In this document: positions 4,539 through 59,300 of the stretch, piece after piece
Numbering within the stretch: position 1 is the stretch's first letter
How the letters are laid out: every line of letters begins with the position of its first letter
Assembly (NCBI GenBank): GCA_905178155.1
Contig: CAJINV010000016.1
Span: 1,455,386-1,519,385 of the forward strand
Direction of reading: 5' to 3'
DNA from: Amoebophrya sp. A120
Lineage: Eukaryota > Protista > Dinoflagellata
Length of the DNA: 64,000 bases
Notes under the pieces: generated by a model
Databases searched by the model: none
What the model saw: the letters and a program-made list of their open reading frames with translations, nothing else
Told to the model about the DNA's origin: nothing
Program-made: the position numbers and the translations under genes

Positions 4539-7500
4539 TCACGTCGCAATCTTTCTCTGCAGTTCCGCAAACCCGGCCAAATACACCGTCAAGAATCCAT
4601 CCCCCAAAGTCGCACTTTCCCCCTCGCCACTCTCCTTCCCACCCCCGCCGCCCTCCGCAGCAGATGCTTTTTTGTTCAAATCGGTTAACACCGTCACGGG
4701 GACTTTCAATTTCGTGATCATCGCGGTGGTTTTCGGTGCGTTCAAAATCACCACGATCTCCAACTCCGCGATGCTGTTGAACGAGAACGTGAACTATCCA
4801 CAGTAAATTTCCCGCACGCGAGCAATGCAAATCCATGCGGTCTCTGCATGACAAAATCAAAACTTGGCTCCGACCCTAGTTTAGCATGACAAGTGTTACA
4901 CTCCAAATGCAAATTTACGAAATTTGTGATGCATCTTGCACATGTGCGGGAAATTTGTATTGCATATGAACTGCAACTCCTTCTTTTTCCGCTTCTCTGG
5001 CAAAGGGTCCAAATCCGGATGGGTGATCGACTTCACCACCTTCTGCGTGTACAACTGCCCTAGAGTTAACGTCTTCTGCGGGTTGAAGCTCGCGCCCTCT
5101 GGGATGTCGTCCGGCTCCACAGTCCGCAGCGTCGCGATTTTCTGTGCCACCGTGTTCATGTTCCACCGGGCGCCCGCGACCTCGTAGGCTGTATCCGTCA
5201 AGACCTTCGGAAGTTTCGGGTCCGTGCAGAACTTCTTCATCAACGCCAGTTCAACCAAAACCCGCTCTGATTTCTCGTAGTAGGTTGCGCGCGCTTCCCG
5301 GATTTCTCTCCGGCCGGAGTCAACGTTTTCTAGGTAAATCCGGTGTCGGTCCCGCATCAGGAGCTGCTCAACTATGTAGGCGAAGACGTCCACCGTTTGC
5401 GTGTCCGCTAGGATTAATTCGTCTAATTTTCCAATCCCGGTATCGATTTTCTTCGTCAAAACGTAGTATGAACTGCAAAAATATCGCACTCGTAGTAATT
5501 GCTGTCATGCATGACAAATCTCCCTCCTAAGGCAAAACAGCATTACAGATTTGATTTGTACTTGTAGTGCTGAGCTAATTTGTAATGCGATTACTTATAC
5601 ATTATATTAATGCGAAAAAAGAGGTAGACAGAGGGTCCCAGAGAGGTGGCCGAGAGGTAAAAAAGAGGCCGACAGAGGTAGAAAAGAGGTCGACAGAGGT
5701 GGAGAGGTGGCGCGGGACCCCGTTCGAGAGGGTCCGCGAGAGGGCGCGCGAATAAGGCCCGCAGTAAGGGCCCACCCTTAGGCGCCGCCTAAGTGGCACA
5801 GAGGGTGCAGAGAGGTCAAAAAGAGGGAGCGCGAGAGGTCGACAGAGGTGGCGAGAGGTGGCGCGAATAAGGGGCGACCTCTCGCGGACCCTCTTGGCCA
5901 CCTCTCGGCCACCTCTGTCGACCTCTACCCGCGAGTATAGCCGGACTATTAGCGGGGACCCCCAAAAGAGGTCAAAAAGAGGGTCTGCGAGAGGTCTGCG
6001 AGAGGGTAAAACACAAAGAAGCGGGCGCGAATCCGCATGGCACTGCCCATATTTGGCACTGCAGGCCATTCCTTCGCGGAGCTGTTTTGTTCGGCGCCTT
6101 TCCGCGCCATCCTCTCGCGCACCCTCTCGCGCCACCCTCTTGCGCCACCCTCTCGCGCACCCTCTCGCGCCACCCTCTCGCGCTACCCTCTCCCGCCGGG
6201 CGGCTTCTGTTCGCCCCCGGTGTTCTTTGCAGCTGCTCCCTGCGCAGAGCGCCCACAGGCGCGGGAAGCGCGCAAGTGGTCCTGCGGGTTGGCGAGGCGC
6301 AATATGTTTCGTTGTGCATAGGCCCGCGGGGTTGTGGTCCGATCGGCAAACAGTCTTGCCCCGGCCCAACAGCCTTGCGCTCCGGCGGCAGCCGGAGCAT
6401 GGCTGGTTTATACTAGTGCGATACTTTTGCAGTGCATATGTAATCCGGCGGTGTCATGTTCGCGTATTGCTTTTTCAGCATCTCAAACTCCAATTTCATG
6501 TCCTTAAAATTCGTCGACTCCAACGCGGGCAAAGCGTTCCACAAATCCTGCAACACCGCCCTCGGGTCGTTCGGATCCTCGGGCATAGAATATGAATTGC
6601 AAAAGGATCGTATTAGTAGTAATTGCAATACAAATTCGGTCAGCATGACATCAAATGGAATTTGTCATTTGTCATGCTGATTTGCTTTGGCAACGAGATT
6701 TGTAATGCATAAATGCAATCACTGCGAGTGCGATACTTTTGCACGGGATATAGAATACGCTTTGACCACCTCGATCGAATCCTCCTCCCCACCAGAACTC
6801 GTTTCCGCGGACAATCTCCTCGGCACAGGGGCTTTACTCGTTTTGCAGAAAACCATAGAAGGACTCGTCAATAGGAATCTTGCGTTCATTTTGAAGTTGT
6901 AAATGACATCTGTGTCCGGTTTCGCAGTGATGGATTTTATCACCTCTTCCGTCACTACGTCCGCGAAGGGGGGGATCAATTCCATCACCAAATAATCTTC
7001 TTCCGTCAAACCAATCTTCGACTCGTGCTCTAGGAGTAATGAGGTGACATTCAACAAATCCGACGTTCGGAGTTGCACCAAGTGCTCCTGGCAGTCGTAG
7101 TGACTCGTGAAATATGCATTGCAAAAGTAACGTACTAGTTTAAATTGCATTACAAATAATTTTGGCAAGAAGAAAAGTGGGATTTGTAGTGCTGTTTTAC
7201 CTTGGGAGGAAGATTTGTCATGCATATCTGCGATTACTACGAGTACGATACTTTTGCACAGCATATGAAAACGTCAATCGTCACCTGCGTGTCCGTGTCG
7301 TCGGTCAATTTCGTCGACTGCTCTTTACAGAACTGGAGCAGCGTATGGATGTGTCAGGATTGATCTCGACAAAGTTGAATTTGAAATACTTAATCTGCGA
7401 TGCATAAAATGCAAGGCACGAAGTGACTGTCTTGCAGGGATTGCAAGCGAGGCCGGTTGTCGGCTTGTTTGGGGTTTGGGATAGAGCTGCTAAAGTAGCA

Positions 7501-10500
7501 TGACAAAAGCGGTCTTCTGTCCCCAAACAGCATGACAAATTGGATTCCAGTTCTCGGAAAATTTGTCATGCGCTGCTTAGAATAAATTGGGCTCGAAACT
7601 GGTATCGATTTTATGCATTACAAGTCATTTCAACTTTGTCGATTTCAACTCTGACACATCCATAGAACGCCGGTTTCACCTGCCGCGAAATTATCGACAG
7701 CTGCTTCTCCGTCGCTTCCACAAAGGTCTTCATCACGAGTTTTTTCAAAAATATTGAGATTTTCTTCACATTGTTCTTGATCGAGCCATCTGCCGCAACT
7801 GCTAACTGTGCCGGATTCCCCAAACCCTGGATCTTCCCAGAGTAAAACGCGAAGTTTTCAAACTGCGGGAGGAGTATCCCGAGAACGAACAACCTAGCTA
7901 AAGGCTCACAAAGTTGCAAATCCAGCCCGATTATCCACAGGAAATTTCCCGCACACGTACAAAATGCATGACAAATTTCCCCAACTTAGAGCATGCCACT
8001 TGTCATGCTAACTAGAATCAAAGGCAAGCTTTGTCATGCAGAAACCGCATTTGTACGTGTACAGGAAATTTACTGTGAATACCGATCGTGATATCATCTT
8101 GCGTCACCGTGAACCTTCTCGCTTTGATCGTCTGTAAAGCGTGGAACATGATTTTCTGGATATCCATAGGTAAATCCAAGTTGCTCAGCCAGTTCAGAAA
8201 TTCCCCCTGGACGTACTCCCGGAACCGTTCCAAATTCGCGTTGCTATCCTGTGCAAAAGTATCGCCCTCGTACTAATTGCAATCTTGCATGACAAACCTA
8301 CCTTTTTACCTGAATTAGCATTACAAATACCATTTTTCTTTCTGATAAAATTTGTAATGCAATTCATACTAGTACGATGCTTTTGGTTTTGCAATGCATA
8401 GTTGAATTCCACGGTCAATTCCTGCGCGTCCTTCTCCCCGCCTGTGTTCGCGTTCGCCTGCATGAACTCGTCTTTGGTCAAATAGAAGTGGTGGGACAAT
8501 TCCTTAACCCCCCGATCCAAAGTGCACATCAAACCGGATTTCCGCGACAAATCCATGATGCTATGGACCACTTCTTCTCGAAAATACGGCTGCAGAGCCC
8601 ATTGGCTGAACAAGTGAAACACCCGCGATCTATCTGGCTGAAACACTTGCGACGGTTCTTTACATTCCTCCACTTCGTGCTTGATCATCACCTTTATGCA
8701 ATATAAATTTCCCGTACATATACAAGACGCATCACAAATTTCACCAATTTGGAGCGTAAAACTTGTTATGCTAAACTAGGATCGAAGCCAAGTTTTGTCA
8801 TGCAAAGACCGCATTTGTACGTGTACGGGAAATTTACTGTGGATAACCTTCAATGTTGCCATGAACAGGTGCTTCGTTCTCTCGTCGTCCAACTCCTTGT
8901 ACAGAGCGCCGACAAATCGGTAAAAGATTTTCTCCTTCTCCAAATCCCCGATGTGCATCGACAACTCGGCTAAATACGCGGGTTGCTGCTGTAAACTCCA
9001 AACCAGTTCCTCAAACCGAGGTAACAGTGCGGTTATTTTCTTCATGTTTGGATTGGTTTTCTTTTTCCCGGTTGATTTGTTCGACGTGTCTGGTGGCTTC
9101 ACGTTGGAGAGAAATTTCGTCGTGGTTTTGAACGAGCCGTCGACATCCGTGAACTTCTCCATCTTCCGCCTCTCAAACCCAGCGACGTTGACGAGAATGT
9201 CCTTCAAAAAAATCTCGTAATCCTTCTTCAACGACGCTTCGGTCTGCCCAAGTGCGATTTCCTTTGCGGACGGCGGTTCTTGCTTGATCAGCGATTGGAT
9301 CGTGGACATTTCCTTGATCCCCGCGCCCTCCCGCATCGCGTTGAACAATTGATCCTTCTCACTCGGGCCTTGGTCCTTCGCGTCCCCCTCGCCTTCCTTG
9401 CACTATCCACAGAAAAAGATCCATGCCCATCCAATTTGTGTTGCACAACATGCGTCAGACCCTGTGTCTGTAATGCAGAAATAGAAAATGGATCGTGGCT
9501 ATGGGTCTTTTTCTGTGGATATCCCCGCTTCGTCCGCAGCGTTGTCCTTGTCATCGTCCTCTGCCGCGGGCGAGTCATCCTCCTCTTCCCCCTGGGATTT
9601 CCTGCCCTGGCTCCCCGCTGTCATCGCCTCTATGCTGGACCACACCGGTTCGACTTTGGTCGGGACGTCGACAAACCGAGGCTCTTGGATCGCGGATAAT
9701 CCCAACCGCCCGCACGACTGGTCCCCCCAAGCGTACACTTCTCCGTTCGACATGATTCCCAAAGAGTGACTCGGACCGGTTGCTAATTGCACCACCGTAT
9801 GCATTGCAAATACGTCTGGGTCTGGGATGAAATTGTGATGCAAGGAACGGAATGCGGAGCGCCCTGTAATGCGCTGTTAAGCATGACAAGTTTTTCCATG
9901 GTTCTGAGTTGCGGAGTCCGCATGAGAAACTAACTGCGTTTTTGCATTGCAGGCAAGAGGAGGTCTCTGCGGCCACGCAATACAGATTTCAGAGTCATGC
10001 CAGGCTAGCATGACAAATCTCGCATCCGTCCAGACCCAGGCATTTTTGCAGTTGATACACCGTCCCGGGTAGACTGTTCAACTGCTCCGGCATCTGGAAT
10101 TTAAAAACGTCCCCACCCCACAATTGTAATGCAGATCTGCATGCTGAGAATGTTTCTCATGCGGAGCCCCATGAGAAGCGTTATCTACTCGCGTTTTGGA
10201 ATTTGTCATGCTCCAATCAGCATGGTATACTAGATCTGTTATGCTGCTGAACTATCTCAAACAGCCCTACACTACGAGTCCAAATTTGTCATGCGAAACA
10301 GCCGAAAACTTGTGGGTTTGTCTAGCCGATTTCCCATCTTGACTATGCGGTGGGGACGCTTTTACATAGGATACGGCATCTGGATCTGCAGCCGCATCAT
10401 GGATTTCGGCAGCCCGAGCTGGTGGGAATTGTTCTCGCCCCAAACGTACACCTCCCCTTCCTGCGTCACGGCTAAGCTGTGTGCCTCCCTGCACGCGACC

Positions 10501-13500
10501 GTTTTGATTTTCACCGACTCGCCGAGCTGCGTGAATTTTTTCGGCATCGTGCAGTCCATCGGCTCGCACACACACCGGTCTCGTCCCCACACGTAAAGAT
10601 CGTTCTTTTCATCCACAACTAGCGTGTGGTAAGCCGCTAATGCTAGTTGTGACACTTTCCGAGGTAAAGGCACCAAAGTCGGGGCATACACATTGTTCAT
10701 CGTGTTCAATCCGAGTCGTCCAAACCACCCGGCTCCGAACATGAACAGCTGCCCATCTTCCGAAACAATCCCCGTGTGCTGCAACCCGCACGTAATTTTG
10801 CTAGCCCTTATCTTGTTAAACCCATTCTCCTCCAATTTTCTCGGTCCGGGTTGTTGCCCCGAGATCACCCCCTTCCCCAAACCGAGACAGCCGTTTTGCG
10901 CGTCGCCCCACGTGAACGCCTGCCCGTCTAGGGAAACCGCGCCGGAATGGGTTTCCCCCGCGGAGCACTCCTTTGCGAGAACGCCCGTTGGGAGATGGAC
11001 CAAAACGGGGTTGTCCGTGGACTTCGCCTGGTTTATTCCTAACTGCCCCTGTCCACCCCGTCCCCAAGCGTACAACTCCATATTGGAAGTTATGCACAGA
11101 CAGTGCTCGTACCCAAACGCGATTTTCGTCACGGGAGAAGAAAATTCCAGCCTCTTCGGCAACCAAAGATCCGCGGTGGATCCCCGCTGCCCGGTCTGCC
11201 CGCTTTCCCCCGCACCCCACACGTACAAAGCCCCGCCTTCCGTCAAGGCGCCAGAATGCATCGCGCCACACTGCTATCAAATGCAAAAGTGTCTGGGTCT
11301 GGAAGATTCCGAGACTTGTCATGCAGATTTTCGATGATCCACGTCGTCTGGAATGCAGGACCTAGCATGACAGATTCTGTGAGATCCCTGCCATGCCTAT
11401 CCTGCATGAGAAACGTCCCCTCAACTTGGTCAAAAGTGGATAACTTTTGGCATTCATGCAACACAGATTTTTGCATGATCCAGCATTAGCATTACAAGTT
11501 GGATCCTTCCAGACCCAGACATTTTTGCAATGCATAACTGCACGGTTTTCACCTTGTAGGCGGATTTCTTGTCCTTGGGCCCGTCGTCCTCGTCATCCGC
11601 ACCACTTGGGCCGGATTTCCCCCCGGCAATCGCCCGCAGTTTTTTCTCCCCGTTGTCGAAGAATTCATTTGCCCGTAACGCGTCTGAGAAGAAGTTTTCG
11701 TCCGAGCTTATCGCCGATTGGTCAAATTCCGACAAAAACTTCGGCTTCGGGACATTTTTCGTGCTTTGTCCCTGACCAACCCTACCGTGTGATCCGTTTC
11801 CCCAGCAAGCTACCCGCCCGTTACTGCATAACGCAACCGTGTGGAACGGGCCGGCGGCGATTTGGAGAACCGGGCCGAGGAACTCGAAGTTTATCCGCCT
11901 TGGGATCGCAACGATCGCGTTGTCGCCGTCGTTCATGTAACCCAAAGGCGACCCGGTTCCCCACGCCCACAATCTCCCTTTCGTGGTCAAAACCACCGTG
12001 TGAAAAGCTCCGAGTGCTACCTGCTTCGCCGATTCGTCAAACGCGCGGACTACGGAGGGGAGAGGGCCGTCGAGACAATCACCGTGACCAAGCCGGCCGA
12101 AGCTCGCCGCGCCCCAGGTGTACAGCGTACCCCGTTCTGCGTCTATCCCCGCAGAGTGCGCTTCGCCACACGCTATTTGGAAGCTATGCATTGCAAAAGT
12201 ATCTTACTAGTATAAATTGCATTCGAAATTTTGGCAAGAAGGCAAGTGGAATTTCTGATGCTGTTTTTCCTTAGGAAAAACATTTGTCATGCATATTTGC
12301 AATTAGTACGAGTGCGATACTTTTGCACACCATAGGAGCAAACCGTGTTCAACGTGGCGCAAAGGTATCACAGAGAAACGTGTTAACGATAGCGGAATTT
12401 GTGATGCAGTAATGCATGACAAAAGGTGCCCAGATCTGTCATGCATAACATGCATATTAGGCAAGAATTGTCATGCGTGGCTGCATTCTGCGAAAACCGT
12501 TAACGTTAACACTTTTTTGCTTGATAAAAGGCTCCAGCTGGTCACGTTCGTTTGTGCCTGCATCACGCGGGAGCCGGTGCCTAATCTTCCGTTCGCGGTC
12601 GCGCCGGCGACGTACAACATCCTTTCAGCCGAGAGGATCATGCCGTGCCTAGCGCCGGCGGCAAAATCGATAGCCGGATTGTCGAGACCGAATTCATATC
12701 AAATGCAAAAATGTCTGGGTCTGGAAGATTCTGAGACTTGTCACGCATATTTTGCATGACCCAGGATGTCTGTAATGCACGACCTAGCATCACAGATTTT
12801 GAGAGGGCTTCCTGATGCCTACTCCGCATGACAAACGCCCTCCCCGCGTAACACAAACTAGACTCCTCTTGCTGGACACGCAATACAAAATTTTCTAGAG
12901 TCCAAAGTTAGCATCACAAGTCCCAATCTTCTAGACCCAGACATTTTTGCATTTGATAATTCCGGGATTTTTCGGGCCGTCTTCACGTCGTCTCTGGGGG
13001 TGTGAAGGTTGTGATGCGGAACTTGACATAGACATGATAGATAGGAACATAATTTTGTTATGCACAAAGCAAGGAAATAATAAAACGCAAAACACAAAGT
13101 ACTGATGCCCGAAGCCCAGCTGCCCATCGGAATTGCATCCCCACGCGTAGACCTCGTTATTGATCGTCAAAGCGAAAGAGAAATCTGCTCCGGCCGTTAT
13201 TCTCAATACCAATCGCGGTATCGAGACATGTAGCGGGTACGGCGCGTTCCAGGGGTCCTCAATCTCCGCGCCCTCTCCTCCCAGCGCCGGGTCTGGCTGC
13301 GCCAACCTCCCTCGAATTCCAAATCCCCAGCCAATCACGTACCCGCCGTAGGCCTCGGGGGAGTTTTTCACTAGAGCCAGCGCGTGGTTCCCCGAAGACG
13401 CGATCTGGTAGATTTTGCACCGGTATCCTATGCAAAAGTAATATCGCACTCGTTCGTAGTAATCGCAGTCATGCATTACAAATCTTTTTTTATGGTAAAC

Positions 13501-13863
13501 CCGCATGAGAAATTCCCTCTGTCATGCTAAGCTAAAATGGATCTTTATTGCAATTCCAATTACGTACTAGAACTAGAAGTACGATACTTTTGCAGTTCAT
13601 AATCGGTTGGGCAAAACCCCAGAAGAAGATGAGCTATCCTCCTGTTTCGCCTGCAGGATTTCCTTCACTTTTGTGTTGATGCCGAATTTCAGATTTTGGA
13701 GTTCGGTGATGCGGTTGAAGAGCTGCTTGTCGTCTTGAAACATGTTGTTTTGGTTTTTTCCAAACGCGTAAATCTTCTCCGATTTACCGCCAATCACGAA
13801 GCTGTGCGCGGCGCCGACGGCCAGCTTCAGTGGGGGAGGGGGGAGCTGGTTCACGGTCGTCAT
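4539..13863 (-). CDS. RCC1-repeat protein with C-terminal IQGAP-like RasGAP-related and RasGAP_C domains (~1742 aa, 18 exons)
   Basis: Many RCC1 blades (e.g. VQCGAMHSGALTEGGALYVWGAGESGQTG, IACGEAHS...YTWGAASFGRLGHG), then IQGAP-like motifs (FEELVWSLQQQPAYLAEL, TLGQLYTQKVVKSI, ELQFTFS). Removing 16 introners (element + 5 nt) and one GT-AG intron (12994-13102) leaves 5229 nt in frame. Confidence 0.85.
4795..4966. mobile_element. Introner (non-canonical intron), family B, opposite orientation to other B copies
   Basis: Ends TATCCACAGTAAATTTCCCG...CGGGAAATTTGTATTGCATA; direct repeat (DR) TGAAC/TGAAC; excision gives ELQFTFSFNS. Confidence 0.9.
5467..6438. mobile_element. Introner family C carrying a nested ~0.8-kb GC-rich insertion
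   Basis: Ends TATGAACTGCAAAAATATCGCACT...AGTGCGATACTTTTGCAGTGCATA; DR CGTAG/TGTAA; excision gives PPDYVLTKK. Confidence 0.85.
5601..6407. repeat. Nested GC-rich foldback-like insertion inside an introner
   Basis: Flanked by TTATAC at 5595-5600 and 6408-6413; internal GAGAGG/CCTCTC inverted blocks and tandem CCCTCTCGCGC(C)A units at ~6110-6190. Confidence 0.6.
6591..6750. mobile_element. Introner family C
   Basis: TAT..ATA terminal inverted repeats (TIRs); DR TAGAA/TAGAA; excision gives KAYSMPEDP. Confidence 0.9.
7113..7265. mobile_element. Introner family C
   Basis: DR TGAAA/TGAAA; excision gives TIDVFTSHY. Confidence 0.9.
7344..7664. mobile_element. Introner family D (long ~40-bp TIR)
   Basis: TATGGATGTGTCAG..TCGACAAAGTTGAA / TTCAACTTTGTCGA..CTGACACATCCATA; degenerate DR CAGCG/GAACG; frame restored (VKPA(L/F)LQFCK). 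Confidence 0.85.
7932..8081. mobile_element. Introner family B
   Basis: DR CCGAT/CCGAT; excision gives ITIGLDLQL. Confidence 0.9.
8245..8400. mobile_element. Introner family C
   Basis: DR GTTGC/GTTGA; excision gives VEFNANLER. Confidence 0.88.
8695..8845. mobile_element. Introner family B
   Basis: DR ACCTT/ACCTT; excision gives TLKVMIKHE. Confidence 0.9.
9404..9521. mobile_element. Introner family E
   Basis: TIR TATCCACAGAAAAAGA(T/C)CCAT; degenerate DR TGCAC/TCCCC; frame restored (DEAGKEGEG). Confidence 0.82.
9798..10057. mobile_element. Introner family A
   Basis: TIR contains GTCTGGGTCTGG; DR CACCG/CACCG; excision gives LPGTVVQLATGPSH. Confidence 0.9.
10093..10373. mobile_element. Introner with altered left terminus and 11-bp direct repeat
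   Basis: Subterminal inverted repeat AAAACGTCCCCACC / GGTGGGGACGCTTTT; CGGCATCTGGA at 10088-10098 and 10374-10384; excision gives QIQMPEQLN. Confidence 0.82.
11275..11536. mobile_element. Introner family A
   Basis: DR ACTGC/ACTGC; excision rebuilds the RCC1 motif VKTVQCGAMHS. Confidence 0.92.
12185..12334. mobile_element. Introner family C
   Basis: DR GAAGC/GGAGC; excision gives TVC(S/F)QIACGEAHS. Confidence 0.88.
12366..12526. mobile_element. Introner family F
   Basis: TIR TATCA..GTGTTAAC; DR AAAGG/AAAGG; excision gives SWSLCATLN. Confidence 0.88.
12697..12958. mobile_element. Introner family A
   Basis: DR ATTCA/ATTCC; excision gives KIPEFGLDN. Confidence 0.9.
13424..13601. mobile_element. 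Introner family C
   Basis: DR ACCGG/ATCGG; excision gives LPNRCKIYQIA. Confidence 0.88.
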
Positions 13864-14769: not shown

Positions 14770-16560
14770 TCAAAATCCCGCAATTCTCATCTCCTGCTGC
14801 ACTAATGGCTCCTTCTCCGCAGATGGTTTTTTTTCGTTTTCCTCTACTGCCTTGCGCATCAAATCTTCCAACGTGACAATCTCAATTTTCTTCTCGACCG
14901 CACTTTTGTACTTGGACGTCAATTTCACGTCTTTGCCCATGCTATCCGTCTTCTCGTTCAGCAAGACACAGTAGCTCGTTTTCCGTGAAACCCCCGTTGC
15001 AACCTTGGCTCCGTAGGTCTCGAACAGTTTGGTGACATCCTGGATAGTTGCTTTTTCACCAATGTTGTTGTTGACCTTCACATTGCAGGCTGCATGTATG
15101 TTCATGTAGGTGAACAAGATATCACTGTCCAGCACACAACTGTAGTTGAAAAAACGATGAAAAACTACTGTACATCCTTTCCCCACGGAGTGGCCCCCGT
15201 GTAGACGATATTTTTCCCCTGGAGAAAGTTCTTTGGTGCTTCGAAAACTGTGGGCTCGGTGTCCAGCATGGCCGGGTTTTGTCTTGCGTAGAGTGCGTAG
15301 GCCTGATTTATTCAACATGAGGGAAGTGTAGAGCTTTGAATGCAACTGCTCATCAATGTCTTCCCAACAAGTGCACACTGTTCATTGAAGTTTTACTTTC
15401 AAAAAATGTAAGTTGTAGTACCACAAATCGCAGCTGCCCACTCGACAGTGGTCTTTCCGCCTTCTCGAAAGCTTGCCTGACCATCCAGTCCACGTATTGC
15501 CCTTCACTCGTGCACACTTCTTGGAACGTTTTCTCTGCGTGGCGGCCGAAATCTAGTTTTTCTGAGCCCTGCACCGGCCCGGAGATCTTCTGGGGAAAAG
15601 GCTTCTTCTGGAAGGAAGATTTCCTGTTGGTTTTGATAGCAATAACATGTTGCGAAGCTTTCATCTGCAATGATCCTCAAAGATTGTAGAGCTTCATCGA
15701 TGTATCAAATTTGAAAGAGCATATGATCATAAACATGAAAGGTCGTGACGATCGTGTTCATGAGCAAAAAGACGATACGCGCCATAGCTTCCTTTCCCGC
15801 CACTGTATCCACCTCCATAGCCGCCTTTTGATTTGTAGCTGTTGTTCCAGCCACCTCCTCCACCGCCGCCGCCGCCCCACGAGGATTTCCCCCAGGAGTT
15901 CCCGCCTTTCCCGTAGCCCTTGCCACCCCCACGCCACCCGCCCTTGTCGTTGTCGGATGAGGACCAATATCCTGTGCAAAAGCATCGCATTCGTAGCAAT
16001 CGCAGTCACGCATTACAAATCTCCATCCCAAGGCAAATCAGCATGACAAATTCCGTTTCTCGTGCTCAGCTAATTTGTCATGCGGTTTATACTACTACGA
16101 TACTTTTGCAACGCATAACCAACTGTTGCGTTTCCAAGCGGATTGGTTTCTTATGCCGTCGGGGCTGTCGTGGTTTTATGTTGTTGTATCATCATGTGGT
16201 CATGTTTTGTTTGTTAATCATTGTTCAGCACAACTTCGCAGTAGTAGACTTGAATTGCGTCGCAACAAGAACAGGATGAAACAGGTCTCAACTAGAATAC
16301 GGAATCTCATCCCCTTGCGCATACGGACTCACGGACGGGTCTGCGCCGGGTAGAACGGATTTCAAACCTCCCGCACCATGATCACCCCCTGCATTCACAT
16401 CAGAAGACGCTGAAGTGTCCACTTTTGCGGCGTTGCCAGCAGCGAAGCCAAAATTTCGTCGAGTAGAGCCGGATATCAACGGGTTGATTCGCTGCAGCGC
16501 TGAAAATCGGCTGCTGGCAGCTCGCGAAGAGCTGAGCAGCTGCACCGCTGCGGTTGACAT
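14770..16560 (-). CDS. BRCT-domain protein with mitochondrial-type presequence, Gly/aromatic-rich segment and ExoX-C-like FGxH motif (~363 aa)
   Basis: GT-AG introns at 16165-16300, 15624-15778, 15303-15421 and 15040-15173 plus introner 15968-16117 leave 1092 nt in frame. BRCT rebuilt: FLQGKNIVYTG...DVTKLFETYGAKVATGVSRKTSY...SKYKSAVEKKIEIV. Also LDFGRHAEKTFQEV...YVDW. Confidence 0.72.
15968..16117. mobile_element. Introner family C
   Basis: DR ACCAA/ACCAA; excision gives RNSWSSSDN. Confidence 0.9.
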
Positions 16561-17220: not shown

Positions 17221-18575
17221 TCACTGCCCCCTAAATCGCCCCTTGCGTGTGCGCCGCGGATCAGCGGTTGCAGTGCTGCCTTTCGACTTCTTGCCGTAGC
17301 CAGAACCCGACTCTGACTCCTCTACTGCAACTGATTCTCCCTCACTTTCCCTGCTACTTTTCTTCCCCCTCCCACCGGAACTACTTTCAAAGTTCACAGA
17401 GCCATGGTCCTTTCTATCGGAAGAAGAGGAGGAGGAGGAGGAACTGTGGCTGCTACCACCGGAGGTTTCATTGTCTTCATGATCGTGCCCGCGCTTCGTA
17501 GTGCTACCGCTTTCGCCCTCGGAAGTTGAAGAGGATTTGGATCGCGACGAAGATGCGCCACTAGATGAAGAAGCGGATTCCTGTTCAGGAGAACTTCTAC
17601 TTGTCCTTGAACTCGACGGGACTTTGTGCAGGTATTTCGACTGGTTATGATCCTCGTCGTGGTCTTCCACGTCGGAGTGATGACCTCGACTAGTACCATG
17701 CCTCTCCTCATCATCGTGATCCACCTTCGCGGCCTTCGGCGCTCTGGTCGCGTATTTCGAAGGCACCCTCGGTATTGTATGCGGCTGACTTGCGTCCATG
17801 CCGGGTGGGAAAGGATTTCCATCCTGGGGCACGTATTGCATCATGTGGTGGACCGCCCAAACGAGGAAGAGAATGGAGGAGGAAGCGACGGCTAGCGTGA
17901 AGTTCTTCTGCCCGGCCTCGCGGGTCAGCACTTTTGAATGAGGAGTCTGGAAGTGCCTGTGAAGGTGGTTGCCTTGATATTGCGCGATAAGACCGTAGAA
18001 CTAGAAGGTTATTACATTTGCGATAAAAGCAAGACAGAAACAGTTCCTCATGTGTAAATTGCAACAGCAGTAAAGGCAAGAACCACGCATAAGTAAATTC
18101 TACATGAGCGCGCCTATCCACCAGATAAAGGGTGGGCAAAAAATCCCGAGACAGCAGATCCATTTTTGCACCGCTGGGTCGTCCTCCTCGTAGAGCGCAA
18201 GTCGGTCCTTGAGCTTCATGCGGGAGCTCGGTAATTGCCCGGAACTGGATTCAGAGGAGGCGAACTGGTATTTTTGGTGGGATGAATTTCAATTTTCTGT
18301 ATTGCAAAACGGCAGGAGACACTGGCATCTTAAAGTGAAGGGCTTCTAGTTGTTCTGCATGACAAGTAAGCAAAACTCACCTTTGGCAGCTCCATCTCAA
18401 CACCAGAGCCGAAAACCTGTGGTATCCAGGAAAAAACAGCCATCCCCATCCAATTTGTCATGCAAAACATACATAAAATCCACTATTTGTCATGCAAAAA
18501 ATGGATGGGGATGGGTGTTTTTTCCTGGATATGTGGCACAGGTGGCTCGTAGCTTATGCGATCGTAGGAGACCAT
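17221..18575 (-). CDS. Small membrane protein with Cys-rich TM segment and Ser/His-rich tail (~325 aa)
   Basis: Removing introner 18423-18531 and GT-AG introns 18265-18380 and 17957-18103 leaves 978 nt in frame; TM segments WICCLGIFCPPFIWWIGALM and FTLAVASSSILFLVWAV. Confidence 0.62.
18423..18531. mobile_element. Introner family E (near-palindromic, 109 bp)
   Basis: TATCCAGGAAAAAACA.CCATCCCCATCC / GGATGGGGATGG.TGTTTTTTCCTGGATA; DR TGTGG/TGTGG; excision gives PPVPQVFGS. Confidence 0.88.
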
Positions 18576-25076: not shown

Positions 25077-28000
25077 CTACTGATCTGCCACGTCGACGTT
25101 AACATCATCCACTTTTGCGGCCATCTCGATCTCCTGTCCCGCTTCTAGCCTGAGGACTGGTGCTTGCTCATCTCCTGCTACTTGTTGGGCTGCATCCTCT
25201 ACTTGCTGCGTATCCCTACCGCTACCCTCTCCGCTTGGAGGAGTCTCAACATCCTTCTCGTCCCCAGCGCTCTTCTTCGCTCCTCTCGCCGGCTTTTCCG
25301 GCAAGGGTGCAACCGTCACCTGCAGCGGCCGTTCGTAGTGCAGCATTGCTCTTTTCGCCACCACCTCCTTCGACATCTCCAGCGGCACGTTGTCCATGAA
25401 AGTTTTCGTCCTGCCCCCGGCCTCGATTTTCCGAATCGAGTCCCCGACCTTCAGTCCATTTTTTGCCGCCCAGCCGTCTGGTTGGATCGCGGTGATTTCT
25501 CCCGTGAAATCTTGCACAACCACCCCGATAGAAACTTTCGGCGGAATCGTGAGATTAAGTGGCTTCGGCGGCTCATCATTTTCCTTTGATTTCCTTCGAC
25601 CTCCTTTCGCGGATTTCTTTCCGCCACCGCAGAGTGGCACTTTTGCGAAGAACACGAAGACAAACATCAAGCACAACACCGTGAAAGCGCCGTAGGGGAT
25701 CGGGATGGTTCGGTGGAAGAATTCGTGGAACACGTACGCGAAGAGGGCCCAGTTACCGAGTACGGGTAGTAGTCTGTACGGATCCGCCGTGTTCATGGCG
25801 CCGGAGGAGAACCAAAGGACGATCAGCAATTCCGATGTGTACCACCGCGCCCGCTCGAACGCCGAATACCGTGGGTAGAGGTCGCACCGGCCGTAGTAGT
25901 CCGGCATTTATGCAATACAAATTTTCCGTACATGTACAAAGTGCATCACAAATTCCACCAATTTGGTGCGTGACACTTGTCATGCTAATCTAGGATCGAG
26001 GCCCACTTTTGTCATGCAGACACCGCATTTGTACGTGTACGGGAAATTTACTGTGGATAGCATTTGGAGGAAGACGATGAACATGAAGGTGAATGGCCAG
26101 TAGGTGCGGAAAAGGATGTTTTTCATGAAGTCGTTGTGGTAGGGCAGGAACTTACACATCACCATGCCGTACACGTAGATCTTCACCAAGTGAACGAATC
26201 CGATCAAATCCATCGGCAAAAACCAGCGGATCACCCACGTGAAGATGATCAGAATGTAAGCGAGATGTCTCGTCGTTCCCAAACACATGGCGAGCGCGAC
26301 CAGGAACAGAATCCCGAAGAACTCTGCCATGCCAATCGCGTGGGTGGTCAGCGTTTTCACCGTGTCTGCGCCCCCGACGTCCGCGTCTTCAAGAATCCCG
26401 CTGCTGTAAATCACGGTGGTCGCCAACGCAATAGCCCCGTAGACCGCGGTCAAACCGATCATCTTTCCGTTCGTGACGCCGAAGGGGTGCGCGTAGCGCC
26501 ACAGGATCATGCGTCGGACCGGGTAGGTCAGGATGGCGTTCTATGAAGTGTAAAAATGTCTGGGTCTGGAAGAATGCACGTTTGTCATGCTTGTCTGGCA
26601 TGACTCTTGAATCTGTCACGCACGTTACCCAAGAGCTCCATTTTTCTGTCATGCAGAAACGCAGTTTGTCATGCAGAATAGGCAACACCTAGAAGCTCAG
26701 AAACTTGTCATGCTGAGCCAGCACTTGTGGCCTCATCATGATACGCCACCCAGCATCACAAGTTTCCAGACCCAGACATTTTTGCACTTGATACGTTCAT
26801 GATCAACATGAGCACGAACGTCATCTGGTAGATGGTTTGGCCCTGGCTGAATTTCACATCCGAGCCGTCGTTGATCCAGTCCGCGACGAAATTGGCTCCC
26901 ACCCCAATCGCGAACACTGCGGAGAGCCGGAGGATGTAGAAAAGCAACGGTGCGTGGGAAAGAACGTAGCACCAGCCGGAGATGAGGTAGAGAAAGGGCA
27001 GCACCCAATTCAAAGCCCCGAATACGTTCCACTCCGCGTACCCCCTTGACCCCCCGTGCTCGGTCACAACACACATGATCGCGAGAGTTCTTCCGAAATC
27101 CAGAAAGTACAGCCGCTCCTTCTGCGGCCGGTTCACAAACTCCCAGTAGAGATCCGTGAAAATCGGCAGGGGAAGCGGGTTTTTCGCGAGCGTGTCACCG
27201 TCATCATCTTGTTCTGCAGCGGCTGTTGTTGTTGACCCTTTTCCACCTTCTCGCAAGTCGGATTTTGTACGCACCACAGAAGAAGTCGACTGTCTTGTAC
27301 TACCATTCCCCCGAGCGGACAAATCCGTATTCAAAAACTCCTTCGCGTCTCCCTTGGATTCAAAATTTGTCGCGCCGATTTCCCGCATGTTTTCCTTCGT
27401 GGACACCAATTGCGCACCAAGCCCGAAGCTGAAGGAGTTGTTCTGGAGCGCGGTGGCGTCGGCGATTAGTGGTGCAGATGAATCAGTAGTAGAATTCTCG
27501 TCCGAGCCGGTTTCGGCCGCATCCGTGGACTGGGACTCCCCTTCCGCCTTGTCCTATGGGATTCTCAAGCGTTACACATACACTCTGAACTGTTGCATGG
27601 ATTTGCCATGCAAAACTACCTTAAGCCGCCAGATGATCAAGCGCCTTCGCATGACAAATCTCCGAAGTAGGGCTAGACAGGATGCAAATCTGTCTCTGTG
27701 CCAAATCTGTGATGCCAACGCAGCAAGCTTACTCCTTGGACTGTTGCTGTTCTTGCATTGCAAATTCATGTAACAATTGAGAATGTAACATTTGAGAACT
27801 CCATATGTCCAACCAAGTCTTCTTGTTTTCCTCCACCGCGGAGTGGTAGGTGGCGCGCTTGCGTGTGCTGGTGATGCGCGCGGTGGCGTCGCCGGCAGAA
27901 GGCTGGACCTCGGTGGCGCTGTTTTTGATTGTATTTTTGGATGCAGCTGGCGGATCGGTATTGTACTATTTGAACAACCACGTTGTCAGACGATAATTCA

Positions 28001-47703: not shown

Positions 47704-50448
47704 TCACGACAAAACATTTGCCCAATCTTCCAAATCATAGCGCACCCGTGACTATCCTGTGCAAAAGTATCGCACTCGTAGTAATCGCAGTCATGCATCA
47801 CAAATCTGGCTCCCAAGGCACATCAGCATGACAAATTCAGCATGACAAATTCCATTTGTCACGCTGAGCGAATTTGTAAGTATTGCAATTAGAATTACTA
47901 CTGCTACGATACTTTTGCAATTCATAGTGCCTGAATCGACCCTGTTTCCGGATCGAATTCGTGCACCAATCTGCCCTGATGCACCGGGTCGATCAGTTGC
48001 AGGCGATTCAAGTCCTCGTTTTCTATCGGCGGCGCGGACGGGCGGATGCTGTTCTCATCGTCGTGACCATCGTCTGGTATTAGAGCAGAGCCGGATGGCA
48101 GAATGGCTGGATGGCGTGGGTGGTGTTGGTGTGAAGATGTCGAGCTGAAAGTAGAACTTGCAAGGTTTTGATGATTCGAAACCAACGCCGTTGTGGTATA
48201 ATCATTTCCACCAATTCTTCCCATCCCAATCGCCTCCGCGAGGTTGTTCGGGAAGTTTTCCTCATCCTCGTGAAACCTGCTTAAGTCTTCCACGATGTAC
48301 TTCTGGCTGAGCACCTGGATCTGGCCGATCCGCAAGTAATCCAGATAGACCTGGTACACCGCGGTAAGAAGTAGAAACAACCCGGTGACAAACCCCATGA
48401 AAGTGAACGAAACCGCTAATCCGATTGCGAGGATGAGGAGGAGAAATTTGTTTTCTTGGAAATACTGCTGAAACAGCACCCGCGTGTTGTGCGCGCAGTT
48501 GTGAACGATGCCCCGGTGGGAGGCTGCCGCACGTCCTCCTCTGGTGCCGCAGCAGCAGCAGGAAAACAAGTTGCAGCAGCAGACCCACATCCTCGGTACG
48601 AAACAGCAAAACAGACTCCGGATTGCGAATAGCAAGCGGAATCTCGGCCCAAACCAGAAAAAGGGCCGGGGCGGGCCCCAGAAGAACCTGCCTCGTCGCC
48701 AGCGGTAGTTGTTCCAGCGGTATCGGTTTTGGAACCGTTGGTACTGCGGACGCAAGACGAACGCGCGCGAACCAAGCCAGGTCGTGTCTTGTTGGGGAAG
48801 CGGGTGCTGGTCATTGTTCTGCTGTTCATCCGCGGCCCGTCGAGTTTCCTGCGCTCGGCTCGATTCTGGTGTTGGCCCCACGACTACATTTTGGCCGCCG
48901 CTGGGAACCTGCCCGTGCGGCAATCTTTGCGCGATACAAGTAGGAGTTGCAGGTGACAGTTGATTGGACGCCGCAAGTATCCCATTCCCACCACCAATTA
49001 CAGGCCGCATAACGCTCGCCGAATCTTGTTGTGGTTGTCCATCTCCGCGCACCGACGGTACTCCGAAAATCAGCCGCTTCAACAACCGATACCAGCCGTA
49101 GACGCTGTAAACCAGTAGAACGACGCACAAAATCTCCACCAAACCATAGACGTAGTACACTCCCTTCCGCCCGTATCGCAAGAAAAAAGTGTTACAGTTA
49201 CACATTGTGTTGCAGGAGCCGCAAGACAGACAACCTTTGTCATGCAGGAAATGCTTGCGAGCTTCGTTTCCTTCCTGTTTTCCCTTGTGATCTTCGCAAG
49301 TTTTCCCTGCCACACAGAGGAAATTTGTGATGCAGAAACTCGAACAAATGTGTAACTGTAACACTTTTTTCTCGTGATAGCCCGAAGAAAAACTCTTCCT
49401 CGAAATTGTTCCTCCGAATCCAAGCGGGAAACGCTTTCCGGAGCTCATCGTGGAGAAAATAGATGTCAATACCCGCGGTAACGACGGCAGATAATATCAC
49501 CACCAGTTGAAACAGCCAGAAGTAGAAGCAGGATTTTTTCAGAATCTTCTTTCGAAACTCCGCCTGCTCCCGTTCTCCGTTGCTCGTCACGTTTGTAACT
49601 AACCTCAGCTGGTACTCGAAACTGCACTCGCAACAATGCGTGAACGCAGCGGCGTTGTAGCTCGTTCCGTTTACGCGCCAGGCATCCAGGCATCTGCGGT
49701 GCACGAAGCGGCTGTTGAAGTTGTGGCAGAGACAGGGGGAGATCAGCGCGTTTTCATCATTGAAACTATCTGTAGAAGTCGTGTTGTTGGTGTTAACGAG
49801 CTGCGTATCTTCCGTTTCTCCCTCTTCCAGCAAGCAGATCCGACACCGTTTTCTCGACTGGCGCGGCTGCTGTTGCTGCAATAACTCATCGCTGTAAACG
49901 CGAACTTGCAGGGGGTCGTCGTTTAAAGCGGCTTGTTGTGCATCTTCTTGTAGTTGTCCCACGACGAAACTGCTTGTTTGTTCGTGTGCCTGCGGGAACC
50001 CATCGTGAAAGGAGGTTGGTACAGCAGCGGGCTGACTTCTGCCGCGAGGTGACGACAAGGTGCCTCCGACTTGTTGGTCATTTTCCAGTAACGGCTGATG
50101 CTGTGGGTTTTGACTTAATATCTGTTGCTGCAAAACGCGCTGGAGTGGAAGCTGGGAGCTACGAGCTGGGTAGGAAAGGCTGTTGTTGATCCCACTAGCA
50201 TAGCCGTAATTCGGACTAGAAGTAGCGCTCGAGGACGTCCCAGCATTCGTCGGCAAAACAATTGCGCCGGAAGCAAAAATGTTTCGATTTTCCACTTCCG
50301 TCAACACTCGGTGGGGCTGCGCTTGCAGAAACTGGGGACGGCTATATTGCAAAGGTTGGATTTGGAAGTTGAGGCCGGGGGTGGACCGGGGAGGCTGGGG
50401 ATAATTCCCGTTGCCCGTTGGCGGTGAAGGTTGGTGGCTGTTGTTCAT
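47704..50448 (-). CDS. Membrane-associated RING-CH (RINGv/MARCH-like) E3 ubiquitin ligase (~784 aa)
   Basis: CRIC...LISPCLC....FVHRRCLDAW...HCCECSFEY (C4HC3) followed by TM helices; removing two introners leaves 2355 nt in frame. Confidence 0.85.
47753..47926. mobile_element. Introner family C
   Basis: DR GTGAC/GTGCC; excision gives IQARVRYDLEDWANVLS*. Confidence 0.88.
49174..49379. mobile_element. Introner family F
   Basis: ~30-bp TIR TATCGCAAGAAAAAAGTGTTACAGTTACACA; DR GCCCG/GCCCG; excision gives FFFGRKGVYY. Confidence 0.9.
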
Positions 50449-53063: not shown

Positions 53064-53162
53064 TGTAACGCAAGCCGGAAGGAAAAGCATACTTACTACC
53101 AAAAGGTTTTGTAACGCAAGCCGGAAGGAAAAGCATACTTACTACCAAAATAAAGGTTTTGT
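53064..53162. repeat. Tandem duplication of a ~46-bp unit in the 3' flank
   Basis: TGTAACGCAAGCCGGAAGGAAAAGCATACTTACTACCAAAA occurs twice, identically. Confidence 0.85.
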
Positions 53163-53304
53163 TGAAAATGAATCCTATTTTTGTTTGCAGTTCTTCGTCT
53201 TTGGAAAAAAAAAACTACTGCGTTCTTCGATTTTTGATTTTGAAAAAATTTGCGCGGCGTCGGCTAAACCTTGATCTTCATTTAGACGACCGCAACTTTT
53301 ATCA

Positions 53305-56300: not shown

Positions 56301-59300
56301 GGCTGGCCTGCGCGTTCTGGTGACTGCCCTCCTTGTTTTTCGCCATGACCTGAATCAAATCCTTCCACTGCTGCCGGAGGTCACGGACCGTGGATTGAAC
56401 CCGCTCGTCTTTGTGCGATTTGTATTTCTGGGTGAAAACCCCGATTTTCGTTTTCCTCAGAATGTCCACCGTCATGTTGACATCGCGGAGGGCGTTGAGG
56501 AGGGGGAGAACTTCTTCGGGCGATTGACCTGAGTCCTCAATGTCGCGGATTACCTGATGTGAGTTGTGACTTTCACATTACAGATCACGAGAAGAATTGC
56601 ACTTCTGCATGACAAAGAGTTTTCTCTCGCGTTTGTCATGGGCAGCAAGATTCCATGTCGTAGCCAGTTGTATGTACCTGCAAAACTTTATTCAGCTCCG
56701 GATCCCTTCCGGCCGGCGGTGGCCCCACACTGGATGTTCTCGACGGCGGTCGTGGCAAGTTTGACCTCACCGGCGGCAGAGACGACTCCCGAGCCGAAAC
56801 CCGCTGCGGCGGTGGTCTCGGAACCTTTGGAATTGCCAGCGGTATCCCGGATCTGCCTCGTTGTTGGCCGTCGTTGCTTTCCTGGGGCGGCGGTGGAGGC
56901 GGGGGCGGAATGATTTGGTTGTTGACAACTTCTGGCGGCGTCGCAGTTCCGGAAGATTTGATTCCTGAAGCCGCTTTGTTCCGGAAAGACGCCATATTCA
57001 CTACGTTGTTGTTATTGTCTTTCTCCCCAAGCACTTTCGTATTGCCGTTGTTATTGCTGTTCTCCTCTTCTCCCCCACCAAACATGCCCATCACGGCGCT
57101 CCCGACGCCAGAAACTAAGTTTTCCACCACATTCGCAGCCGAACCAGATCCGCCGACCAACGCCCGATCCCGGTCGGATCTCTTGCTGCCAGTTTTCTTC
57201 TTGAAAGCGCCCTGGACGTCACCTCTAGCTGTGTCGTTGTTGTCGTCCTCAGACGCGGTGTCTGAACCGGAGTCCGCGTTATTTTCCGACGGTGAACTGG
57301 AACTGATGTCCTGTCTCGCCGGTCGTCTCTTATTTCTGTCGCCTTTCGAACTCTTCCTCCCTGTCTTCCCGTTTTGATTCCCAGTTTTCGTACTTCCATT
57401 CGGCCCAATATCCGGGCTGGCTTTCGATGTGCTTCTGTATTGTTTCCGTTTCAGCTGCGATTGTTTCGACTGTTCGTACGGAGTGGTGTCGTGATTCCGC
57501 GCTTCGGCCGCCGCGTAAGCAGCGAGAGCCGCGCCGTGGTCGTACTGCGCATGAGGGTTGGTTTGCTGGGTCGCGTACTGATTGTACATCGCTTCGGCGC
57601 CGGCGGTTGCCGGATGGTTGTACCCTGCAGCCCCGGCTGCCGCCATCAACCCACCCGGACCTGGGAAAGCGGGCTGGTGCGCACCAAACTGCGGACTCCC
57701 AACCGGGCCGCTGGCTCCGGGCGCGACCATTGGCATGCCCGTGTGACCCGGGCCAGCGCCACCGTAGAGCTGATTCGCCGCGGCCATTTGCATGGCCAGG
57801 GGGTTGAGGCCCATCGGGTTGGCGGCCGCCATCATCGGGTTAAGCGCCATCATCAGCTGTTGTAGTGGGGTTTTTGCAATACAGATTTTTGTTTTTTGTT
57901 TTTCTTTTTCATCTCGCAATCGCTCAGCTATAGTGGGTTTTTTGCAATACAGATCGCATCCATTCATCGCAACAAATAAATGTAAATCACCTGTTGCTGC
58001 TGCTGCAACAATAACTGCTGCTGCTGTTGAAACGCCTGCTCGTACTCCGTCAACCCGCCACCCACGCTCGGTAAGTTCAGTTGCGGTTTGTACAGAGGGT
58101 TCATCTCCGCCTGCGCAGTCACCATCTGATACACGGCGCTATCCTCGTCCAATGGTACTAGTCTGTCCCCTGTGTGCGGGAAAGAGGGTAAAGGCTCCAG
58201 CGGGATTTTCGTCGCCTTTGCGTAACCAGAATCGTCGATCAAGAAGGTGTTCACGAACCCGGCTACCACTCCATCCCGGACGAACGGGTCCATTTCCTGC
58301 ACCCATCTAACATGCCGTCTCCTCAACCGCTTCAATAGTTCGAAGAAAAACGCGTCCAAAGGATGTCGTCGGGAGAACCTCGTTTGATGTTCCGAGGTAT
58401 TATTTCCCGCCCCTCTTGTCTCCACATAAACAGCGTCTTGCTGCACGTCGTCGAACCGGAAGGTCCACTGGCCGGGGATGGGGCAGAGCGCTGCGATCTT
58501 CAAAAACGGCATGCCCCAGACCATGGAATATGGCGTTCTCAAACGTTTGATGCAAGAGCCGCAACAATCAAAGGCGCAAGCTTGCTGCTTTCGCATCACA
58601 GATTTGGCACGGATTTACTTAGAAGATGCTGCGTAGCCTTTCGGAGATTTGTCATACGAAGCGGCTTGATCATCCACCGCCCGGCTCAAAGTAGTTTTGC
58701 ATGACAAATTCATGTAACAGTTCAGAATGTAACGCTTGAGAACGCCATATGGAATCCGGGTAGTCTTTGACTTGGAAGTACTTGGCGAAAAGAACTAAGA
58801 CTGCTGCGTGGAGGAGAGGGAATTGGTCCCGGATGACGCAGTCGAGCATCTGGGTTTGCGGGTCGAAATGCGGCTTTTCGCCTGCGCGGACAAGGGGGCG
58901 CTTGTCGGAGAGCTCCTTTGTGTACCTGATGATAGAGAAACAGAAAGTGGTTTGTTGTATGTACAACATAAGTACGCAAAATTTGCTCATCATGCGTGGT
59001 TGTACTTCGTAGCTCAACATTTTGAACTGCAGCAGGAGAAGAAGATCTAGATCTTCCCCAGTAGTTTATTGTACCATGCAAACCGTTTCCGTTGCTTATC
59101 CCTCTCCTCATTCACTTTCTTCGCGAACCAGATCCTGCTGCCCGGTATGACTTTCTGCACTTTCTCCGCCAGAATCGCAATGTGTTCCTCCTCCCTCGGG
59201 TGTTGCCATCTGGACCCCAGTTCCTGGTTCGAGTAATACGTGAATCCCGAGCCAAAATCACACTCCTCACTGGTCTTGTGTGCTGTCCACCCACTTGGTA

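Follow-up and report, generated by a model that had tools for sequence, protein, structure and literature searches.

What moves the introners of the dinoflagellate Amoebophrya sp. A120, and how are these elements spliced out of RNA without GT-AG ends? As described by Farhat et al. 2021, A120 carries ~30,000 introners, whose inverted repeats read TAT, seven variable bases and at least three A and which are flanked by short direct repeats and lack a splice signature; the accessible part of that paper reports no transposase (PMC7789003). Among 41 of the 58 rows in Gozashti et al. 2025, most A120 families are elements with terminal inverted repeats (TIRs) of unknown superfamily (PMC12130899). Here, we discuss a 64,000-nt stretch of the A120 genome (the window; contig CAJINV010000016.1, positions 1,455,386 to 1,519,385), where introners of several families share an internal 10-mer, GCAT[GCT]ACAAA. 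We suggest, with a probability of roughly 0.57, that this 10-mer acts as a helically phased double-stranded DNA site of a mobilising protein, most likely a transposase, and not as a splicing signal.

In the window, TAT...ATA-type ends together with a 5-bp target-site duplication (TSD) mark 32 elements, 25 of them called automatically and seven found by inspection (those starting at 5467, 7344, 9404, 10093, 34660, 40040 and 43401; Table 1). The caller required TAT ends and a TSD match of at least 4/5, leaving positions 4-16 free. A larger sample was obtained by a pattern scan of metagenome contigs, which gave 137 stretches at 134 loci (cited below by L numbers); 12 loci from other records were dropped, and the 122 loci of assembly JACKZZ01 were merged into 115 sequences (630,720 nt, ~631 kb). 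The JACKZZ01 contigs carry the same families as the window, but may not be A120 itself. Because the scan pattern combined a TAT end and a site at about +35, F1- and F2-like copies are over-sampled, the other families coming from the flanks. Together, contigs and window yielded 534 elements, whose TSDs are without sequence preference and match at 5/5 positions in 404 cases and at 4/5 in 130. Their 1,068 ends show TAT, seven variable bases and at least three A, as in the published A120 introners. The elements are indeed these introners: organism, inverted-repeat rule, direct repeats of 3-5 nt and non-canonical ends agree, and the family lengths match the 106-319 bp given in the accessible part of PMC12130899. 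Moreover, a host exon of 300 amino acids matches a protein of Amoebophrya sp. A120 at 100% identity, vs 62% for A25. The 518 elements of at most 400 nt fall into 19 families plus 31 unclustered copies, and searches with the consensuses recovered 586 full copies. Nine family groups were assigned from masked and unmasked matches and from end sequences. Element lengths cluster at ~150, 210, 260 and 310 bp, and a few elements measure about 110 bp; the steps of ~50 bp correspond to about five helical turns.

In the window, GCATGACAAA is the most frequent 10-mer. There are 55 strict copies of GCAT[GCT]ACAAA (29 forward and 26 reverse), and 54 of these lie inside the 32 elements (6,429 nt, nested insertion excluded), where a composition-matched background would give 0.29-1.58 (Markov orders 1-3). 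At least one strict copy is found in 28 of the 32 elements, and the sole copy outside them, at 56607, falls within a predicted GT-AG intron. In exons, matches to the position weight matrix are at chance level (26 in 212.7 kb vs 29.5 expected, threshold 11). The original prediction, made from the window alone, that the 10-mer is enriched in introners and rare in exons is consistent with these counts, and copies are present at all five ranges that it cited (6668/6699, 18454/18486, 26581/26665, 36038/36087/36253 and 47795/47826/47840). It also described the host families as unrelated. This holds for the internal sequence, as motif-masked alignment of the 19 family consensuses gives matches within groups only, and it does not hold for the ends: all families share TAT-N7-AAA-type ends and a 5-bp TSD and therefore belong to one system. 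The further remark that copies are usually several and in both orientations does not hold for every element: each family has two to seven sites, in either orientation, and those of F8 and F14 lie in a single orientation. The fuller motif, (W)GCA[T/A]nACA[A/G][A/G]T, is somewhat wider and looser than the strict 10-mer. A variant of it occupies positions 4-13 of many termini, where the consensus reads TAT-S-M-A-N-T-G-C-A-A-A-A. A scan of viral contigs for tandem motifs gave 29 matches, which resembled unrelated repeats, none of them recognisable as an introner.

The spacing of the sites was measured on 18 family consensuses (F8 and F9 are equal, and F9 was left out). Four distance classes (outward site-to-end, same-orientation, convergent and divergent) peak at 10.0-10.5 bp (p<=0.0015 vs uniform). 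The joint period is 10.4 bp (bootstrap 10.2-10.6), and no resample out of 300 reached 10.9. This value matches B-DNA, while the period of A-form RNA is ~11; the match therefore points to a protein that reads one face of the DNA duplex. When each group is represented by a single family, the power lies at 15-28 (5th-95th percentile, 90 combinations) vs a null 99th percentile of 14.9. Moreover, 16 of the 18 families carry a same-orientation pair at 30-33 bp (null mean 3.1, maximum 8), and outward sites cluster 39-42, 48-51, 60-63, 68-72 and 79-84 bp from the end. The layouts differ between groups, yet they stay in helical phase.

Trees of 14 families (570 copies) were used to count substitutions on terminal branches. 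The core positions GCA(T/A)nACA changed in 728 of 17,699 cases (4.1%) and the internal background in 5,033 of 40,725 (12.4%), i.e. the core is about three times more conserved; the corresponding figures are 303/2,268 (13.4%) for the free middle base and 55/3,371 (1.6%) for the terminal TAT. These data support the view that the motif is a shared, selected cis-element. What happens after insertion can be gauged from the TSD mismatch, 6.5-7.4% per site, which corresponds to roughly 3-7% neutral change; the 4.1% of the core lies within this range and the 1.6% of TAT below it. Between copies with a TIR identity of >0.9 and those at 0.7-0.8, the core declines from 0.892 to 0.799 identity and the background from 0.760 to 0.675, the same proportion (motif-masked hidden Markov models). 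In 30 relics in predicted introns the two values are 0.687 and 0.678, compared with 0.882 and 0.749 in 615 full copies; masked columns align noisily in this comparison, and the detection of relics is biased towards background matches. In old copies, i.e. those with mismatched TSDs, the excess core/background ratio is 0.64 with a wide confidence interval (CI) of 0.20-1.92. The original prediction had set neutral-rate decay in old copies against a role in splicing, and such decay is broadly what is seen, core and background falling in proportion. Phase-breaking length changes (at least 3 bp) are mildly depleted in 31-bp spacers, with 0.39 per 100 bp vs 0.57 elsewhere.

Does the motif also act in RNA? 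Nearly every family is found in open reading frames (ORFs) in both orientations, including those with one-orientation sites (F8+F9, 11 sense and 12 antisense; F14, 5 and 3). In the coding-context set of 432 elements (site threshold 10), the GCAU sense is missing in 44, the UUUG sense in 20 and both in one. Among elements shown or inferred to be removed, GCAU-sense sites lie at distances of 44-232 nt from the 3′ junction. Core mismatch by RNA sense, paired by site, is 6.7% vs 6.4% (62 sites, p=0.86); the strand test is positive at the terminal TA (see below), and the equality of the two senses at the core therefore does not stem from an insensitive test. In predicted consensus folds, 84 of 166 sites pair with another site because the sites are complementary, and the middle base of potential stem partners shows no covariation (54% vs 49% expected). 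The window contains no snRNA. Collectively, these data separate the two roles that had been proposed together. The DNA site fits, with B-DNA phasing, orientation independence, the terminal variant and decay in its favour, and the branch-point equivalent or landing pad fails in these tests, with no required RNA sense, no strand asymmetry and no fixed distance to the 3′ junction. Hence, the motif is likely not the splicing signal.

In the model that we favour, several DNA-binding domains of an oligomer would occupy sites on one helix face, the typical module being a site pair 31-33 bp apart, i.e. three turns. Docked in this way, the short element would be held with its two TAT ends within reach of the catalytic centre. 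Further rounds of copying would draw on elements whose array is intact, which would conserve the core along active lineages, and the array would decay after insertion. Removal from RNA would be a separate job, in which a spliceosome relaxed at +1 may read N-U-A like the canonical GUA, with the terminal hairpin setting the 3′ cut. Similar arrays are known from hAT transposons: in the accessible text of PMC10368747, Hermes, Ac and Tol2 carry several oriented subterminal repeats that are bound cooperatively by BED domains. The likeness to hAT elements (Hermes, Ac, Tol2 and Herves), as far as these sources go, lies in a set of short oriented sites within the ends, one of which is in the TIR, left/right asymmetry and conservation above background. 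The A120 site differs in having 7-10 informative bases vs four for Hermes, in its 31-33-bp and 10.4-bp grammar and in being common to families with different TIRs. A 5-bp TSD is shared with the hAT5 lineage (PMC12730594, in the part accessible) and with Ginger-like DDE transposons, but several superfamilies have it, and it is not diagnostic. A120 family 38, Ginger-like, has a 5-bp TSD, TA/TA termini and ~810 bp in the accessible part of PMC12130899; the 815-bp element L098:2482-3296, with F13 ends and four motif sites, is a candidate member by its length.

Several observations weigh against this model. No transposase or autonomous element was found in the window or the 631 kb (~0.5% of a ~115-Mb genome): a Pfam scan of 25 window ORFs and 32 locus ORFs gave no transposase, and a search of the window and fetched loci for an autonomous partner (long TAT elements, large TIR pairs, element-free stretches, Pfam) gave none. 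As far as PMC3143072 is accessible, hAT sites, namely those of Herves, are described as element-specific, which makes one motif across different TIRs atypical; here, the site is not specific to one family but common to nine groups. Inward site-to-end distances are not significantly phased (p=0.33, 18 consensuses). Pooled strand counts, which mix families of unequal orientation, differ (8.0% vs 6.8%, p=0.014), a difference that is not reproduced when paired by site. The most invariant core positions changed at 2.4-2.6% vs a neutral ~3.3-7% read from TSD mismatch, and weak selection on the core after insertion is possible; the CI of the TSD-age ratio spans both persisting selection and background-like decay.

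Target choice is a further such point. Counted from the TSD, flanks are biased to T at -13 and G at -11, with TnG on at least one side in 203 of 394 sites (background 5.8% per position). In groups A, B and C both bases are strongly favoured, in D, G, H, J and E it is chiefly T, and in I there is no bias; this difference suggests more than one enzyme sharing one motif. The T-13/G-11 bias is independent of element orientation, and in the window it is seen in 21 of 64 flanks. That the target bias is the motif itself is unsupported, since only TnG is common and the GCA half is not enriched.

Finally, motif-free TAT...ATA elements have also moved, namely L095:8137-8657, L032:2652-2762 and a ~720-bp family. 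The first lies directly after a stop codon and has ten copies of CGA[T/C]AACA; the second, nested in another introner, has one; both have a 5-bp TSD. These two are possibly served by a protein with shifted specificity. The L095 element has ~29 terminal bases in common with the window element 12366-12526. The ~720-bp family (L077:9007-9739, L091:12870-13601 and L103:9117-9836) starts with TAT, its inverted repeats are weak or offset, and both a clear 5-bp TSD and the motif are lacking; its length resembles that of A120 family 26 (730 bp) in the accessible part of PMC12130899. The L103 copy lies between coding flanks, and the frame would reopen on its removal; a homologue search with the L103 exon gave no match. 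That motif-free elements occur only outside exons (2/2 at first) is weakened by this family and by six site-less coding-context copies. Other long elements in the fetched loci are L104:2810-4668, a 1.86-kb element with long inverted repeats and a likely 3-bp duplication inside the TIR of an F3/F4-type introner (no Pfam match in one ORF), and L036:11405-12270 (TAC...GTA) and L059:15250-15876 (GAG...CTC), which have long TIRs, a non-coding context and no motif array.

An alternative that we regard as doubtful, if worth keeping in mind, is that one shared accessory or host architectural factor binds the sites and the transposases read only the termini. It would explain a single motif across nine groups that differ in TIR positions 15-28 and in target bias, and phasing, orientation independence and post-insertion decay fit it equally. 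There is also a precedent for a host factor on transposon TIRs, ProtoRAG and YY1 (PMC7481187, in the part accessible). What speaks for a transposase instead is the motif variant at terminus positions 4-13 (perfect in the element at 43828), where a transposase would be expected to bind. In addition, the motif is near chance in exons and no promoter-like use is seen.

It is less probable still that an array-bound protein serves as a chromatin mark of the intron and brings in the splicing machinery co-transcriptionally, with families keeping or converging on the motif for the sake of removability. Orientation independence and DNA phasing are compatible with such a mark, the two cleanest motif-free elements lie outside exons, and the CI allows a post-insertion decay ratio as low as 0.2. 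A further lead comes from canonical introns. The intron predictor recovered 5/7 RNA-supported canonical introns exactly, and since it over-calls in non-coding regions, counts refer to a filtered subset. The 113 predicted GT-AG introns in this subset hold 48 motif matches vs 3.3 expected, seven of their nine same-orientation site pairs are 31-34 bp apart, and the seven RNA-supported window introns hold five matches vs 0.36. Yet 87 of the 113 (130 of 164 in a wider set) lack a site, which argues against a general mark. The 34 motif-positive introns resemble elements beyond the motif (10.8 vs 4.2 bits, p=2e-5), and sites in the 164-intron set have no phase to the splice sites. The motif as a general mark of canonical introns is thus rejected; from the residual element similarity and the lack of splice-site phase, the positives are most likely relics. 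Moreover, 6 of 432 coding-context elements lack a strong internal site and 17 have just one, the core decays like background in old copies, and the motif-free L103 element sits between coding flanks.

A combination of the two roles seems about as improbable, perhaps a shade more so: one DNA-binding protein, a transposase or a domesticated derivative, would read a single phased code on tens of thousands of unrelated mobile introns, mobilise them and also mark them on chromatin for removal by a spliceosome that needs N-U-A and the hairpin only. That the motif is an inherited remnant of an ancestral element without present function is very improbable, because the slight likeness across groups of the spacers in 31-33-bp pairs (6.8 vs 5.6 +/- 0.15 matches), by which the module may be of shared ancestry, has to be set against three-fold position-specific constraint with a free middle base and against differing layouts that remain in phase. 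Least credible is an RNA element (branch-point equivalent, snRNA landing pad or structural stem), with which intronic position and site pairing in folds agree and against which stand the 64 of 432 coding-context elements lacking one RNA sense, the variable 3′ junction distance, the strand symmetry, the non-covarying middle base and a period of 10.4 and not 11.

If the motif does not direct removal, the ends may. Two contig runs, X3 and X4, were taken as RNA by guess; they also skip CT..AC introns. Of their 40 joint rows, 15 are listed, and among these eight skip an element plus exactly one TSD, six correspond to canonical introns and one is an opposite-strand joint. Contig pieces bridge four further elements, and the DNA-like run X1 passes unbroken through 9404-9521. 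The termini differ by RNA strand. Among 360 in-ORF copies with a TSD of at least 4/5, no change of T1 or A2 is seen at the RNA 5′ end vs 11 and 8 changes at the 3′ end, and position 3 shows six changes vs two; in a looser set of 388 in-ORF copies, T1/A2 changes number 5 and 2 at the 5′ end vs 12 and 8 at the 3′ end. In TIR positions 15-28, G-U exceeds A-C (180 vs 136, p=0.015), which hints weakly at a role of the stem at the RNA level.

The cut can be bounded by mismatched TSDs, as the number of bases kept from the left (+) TSD copy. The contigs give 1-4 at 5467, 1-2 at 7344 and 0-1 at 9404 and 13424, and the annotated A120 protein gives 0-1 at 12185. A single register, if one exists, is 1, which in the RNA sense places the 5′ cut 1 nt ahead of TAT and the 3′ cut 4 nt beyond ATA. 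At this cut there is no excess of G at +1 or of AG at the 3′ side (107/388 GT and 36/388 AG). Predicted canonical introns start with GTA in 92/113 and with GTAT in 44/113 cases, the donor score having favoured A or G at +3 and not T at +4. These GTA(T) starts have the same register as N-TAT, from which we infer a spliceosome relaxed at +1. Several candidate intermediates, among them L032:7187 and L045:2611, start with G-TAT, end with ATA-G and look like introners turned canonical. The original prediction regarded the motif as the best handle on the mechanism; for splicing, the 5′ N-U-A and the terminal hairpin serve better, and the motif is the handle on mobilisation.

The features of the window are collected in Table 1; all window genes examined are on the minus strand. 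Introner rows are unstranded (.), and the canonical introns and the RCC1 exon are on the minus strand.

Table 1 Introners, canonical introns and host exon of the window (window positions; copies in introners are strict motif copies unless qualified)
Feature	Positions	Strand	Motif copies and TSD	Call and removal
Introner F2	4795..4966	.	TSD TGAAC; strict copies 4846 forward, 4923 reverse	automatic; element and one TSD skipped in X3/X4
Introner F1-type	5467..6438	.	5509, 5579; mismatched TSD; split by ~0.8-kb nested insertion	inspection; 977-nt skip
Introner F1	6591..6750	.	6668, 6699 (31 apart)	automatic; contig skip
Introner F1	7113..7265	.	terminal variant +4; 7147, 7214	automatic; contig skip
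Introner F11-type	7344..7664	.	7498, 7530, 7562 (32, 32 apart); mismatched TSD	inspection; contig skip
Introner F2	7932..8081	.	7966, 8030	automatic; contig skip
Introner F1-type	8245..8400	.	8287, 8318, 8351	automatic; contig pieces
Introner F2	8695..8845	.	8729, 8794	automatic; contig pieces
Introner F14-like	9404..9521	.	two degenerate copies 32 apart, single orientation; mismatched TSD	inspection; unbroken in DNA-like run X1
Introner F4	9798..10057	.	strict copy 10008 and degenerate copies	automatic
Introner F8-type	10093..10373	.	all copies in one orientation, strict 10202, 10285; RNA-3′ end mutated (TCT for TAT on +)	inspection; removal inferred from contig coordinates
Host exon, RCC1-repeat protein	10374..11273	-		100% identical to Amoebophrya sp. 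A120 protein
Introner F3	11275..11536	.	1-mismatch copies only	automatic
Introner F1	12185..12334	.	12283; mismatched TSD, informative on cut register	automatic
Introner F15	12366..12526	.	12398, 12414	automatic
Introner F3	12697..12958	.	12826	automatic
Canonical GT-AG intron	12994..13102	-	two weak copies 13017, 13063
Introner F1-type	13424..13601	.	13473; mismatched TSD	automatic; contig pieces
Introner F1	15968..16117	.	16010, 16041, 16074	automatic; contig skip
Canonical GT-AG intron	18265..18380	-	motif copies 18357, 18305
Introner F14	18423..18531	.	18454, 18486 (32 apart), single orientation	automatic; contig skip
Introner F2	25909..26059	.	25943, 26008	automatic
Introner F4	26542..26793	.	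26581, 26665	automatic
Introner F13	27555..27805	.	27649	automatic
Introner F1	31116..31265	.	31150, 31183	automatic
Introner F3	32749..33013	.	32875	automatic
Introner F12-type	34660..34987	.	34713, 34796; RNA-3′ end mutated (TTT for TAT on +)	inspection
Introner F1	35788..35932	.	35826, 35857	automatic
Introner F11	35995..36302	.	36038, 36087, 36253	automatic
Old F1-type introner	40040..40247	.	TSD 3/5; one degenerate internal site remaining	inspection; between two long minus-strand ORFs
Introner F3/F4-type	43401..43658	.	TSD 3/5; 1-mismatch copies only	inspection
Introner F2	43828..43978	.	perfect motif in terminus (43831 = position 4) and 43862	automatic
Introner F1	47753..47926	.	47795, 47826, 47840	automatic
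Introner F6	49174..49379	.	49236, 49324	automatic
Predicted canonical GT-AG intron	56554..56677	-	strict copy 56607
Introner F13	58529..58749	.	58699	automatic

Some further features of the window and the copies deserve mention. The insertion nested in introner 5467-6438 (~5600-6405) is a GC-rich repeat of AGAGG type with a possible 6-bp duplication and no relative in the fetched loci. Positions 23620-23785 hold nested inverted repeats of ATCCGA-like units that are not of the TAT type, and positions 600-1600 and 2900-4000 are very GC-rich and of low complexity; they contain numerous short inverted repeats, and none of the fetched loci holds a relative of them. Two families show an orientation bias relative to transcription (F1, 84 sense and 54 antisense; F3, 13 and 32). 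Private length changes among the 586 copies are mainly insertions and favour 3 nt (225) and 6 nt (99); by comparison, changes of 2 nt number 95 and those of 4 nt 69, and deletions of 3 nt number 14. Most of these changes are not exact tandem duplications, and they are commoner in older copies.

How do these features compare with what is known? In the accessible parts of the published descriptions of A120 introners, only end repeats are given, and the internal motif with its phasing, the cut register and the 5′-specific TA constraint were not found there or in the openly accessible text of the other literature searched. The nonconventional introns of euglenids and the non-canonical introns of Fritillaria are also like miniature inverted-repeat transposable elements, have TIR stems and TSD-like junction repeats and are removed without GT-AG; they differ in their end rules, and no comparable internal phased motif was found for them in the accessible part of PMC11282704.

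Taken together, the two questions raised by Farhat et al. for A120, what moves the introners and how they are spliced without GT-AG, are now separated. The phased motif could be used as bait for the mobilising protein. The 5′-specific TA constraint and a fixed cut register amount to a testable splicing rule, which would account for the conversion of introners into ordinary GT-AG introns. For a transposon community, a single binding code across families with different TIRs would be an unusual form of organisation and, if a single protein does fill both roles, intron definition would be written at the DNA level.

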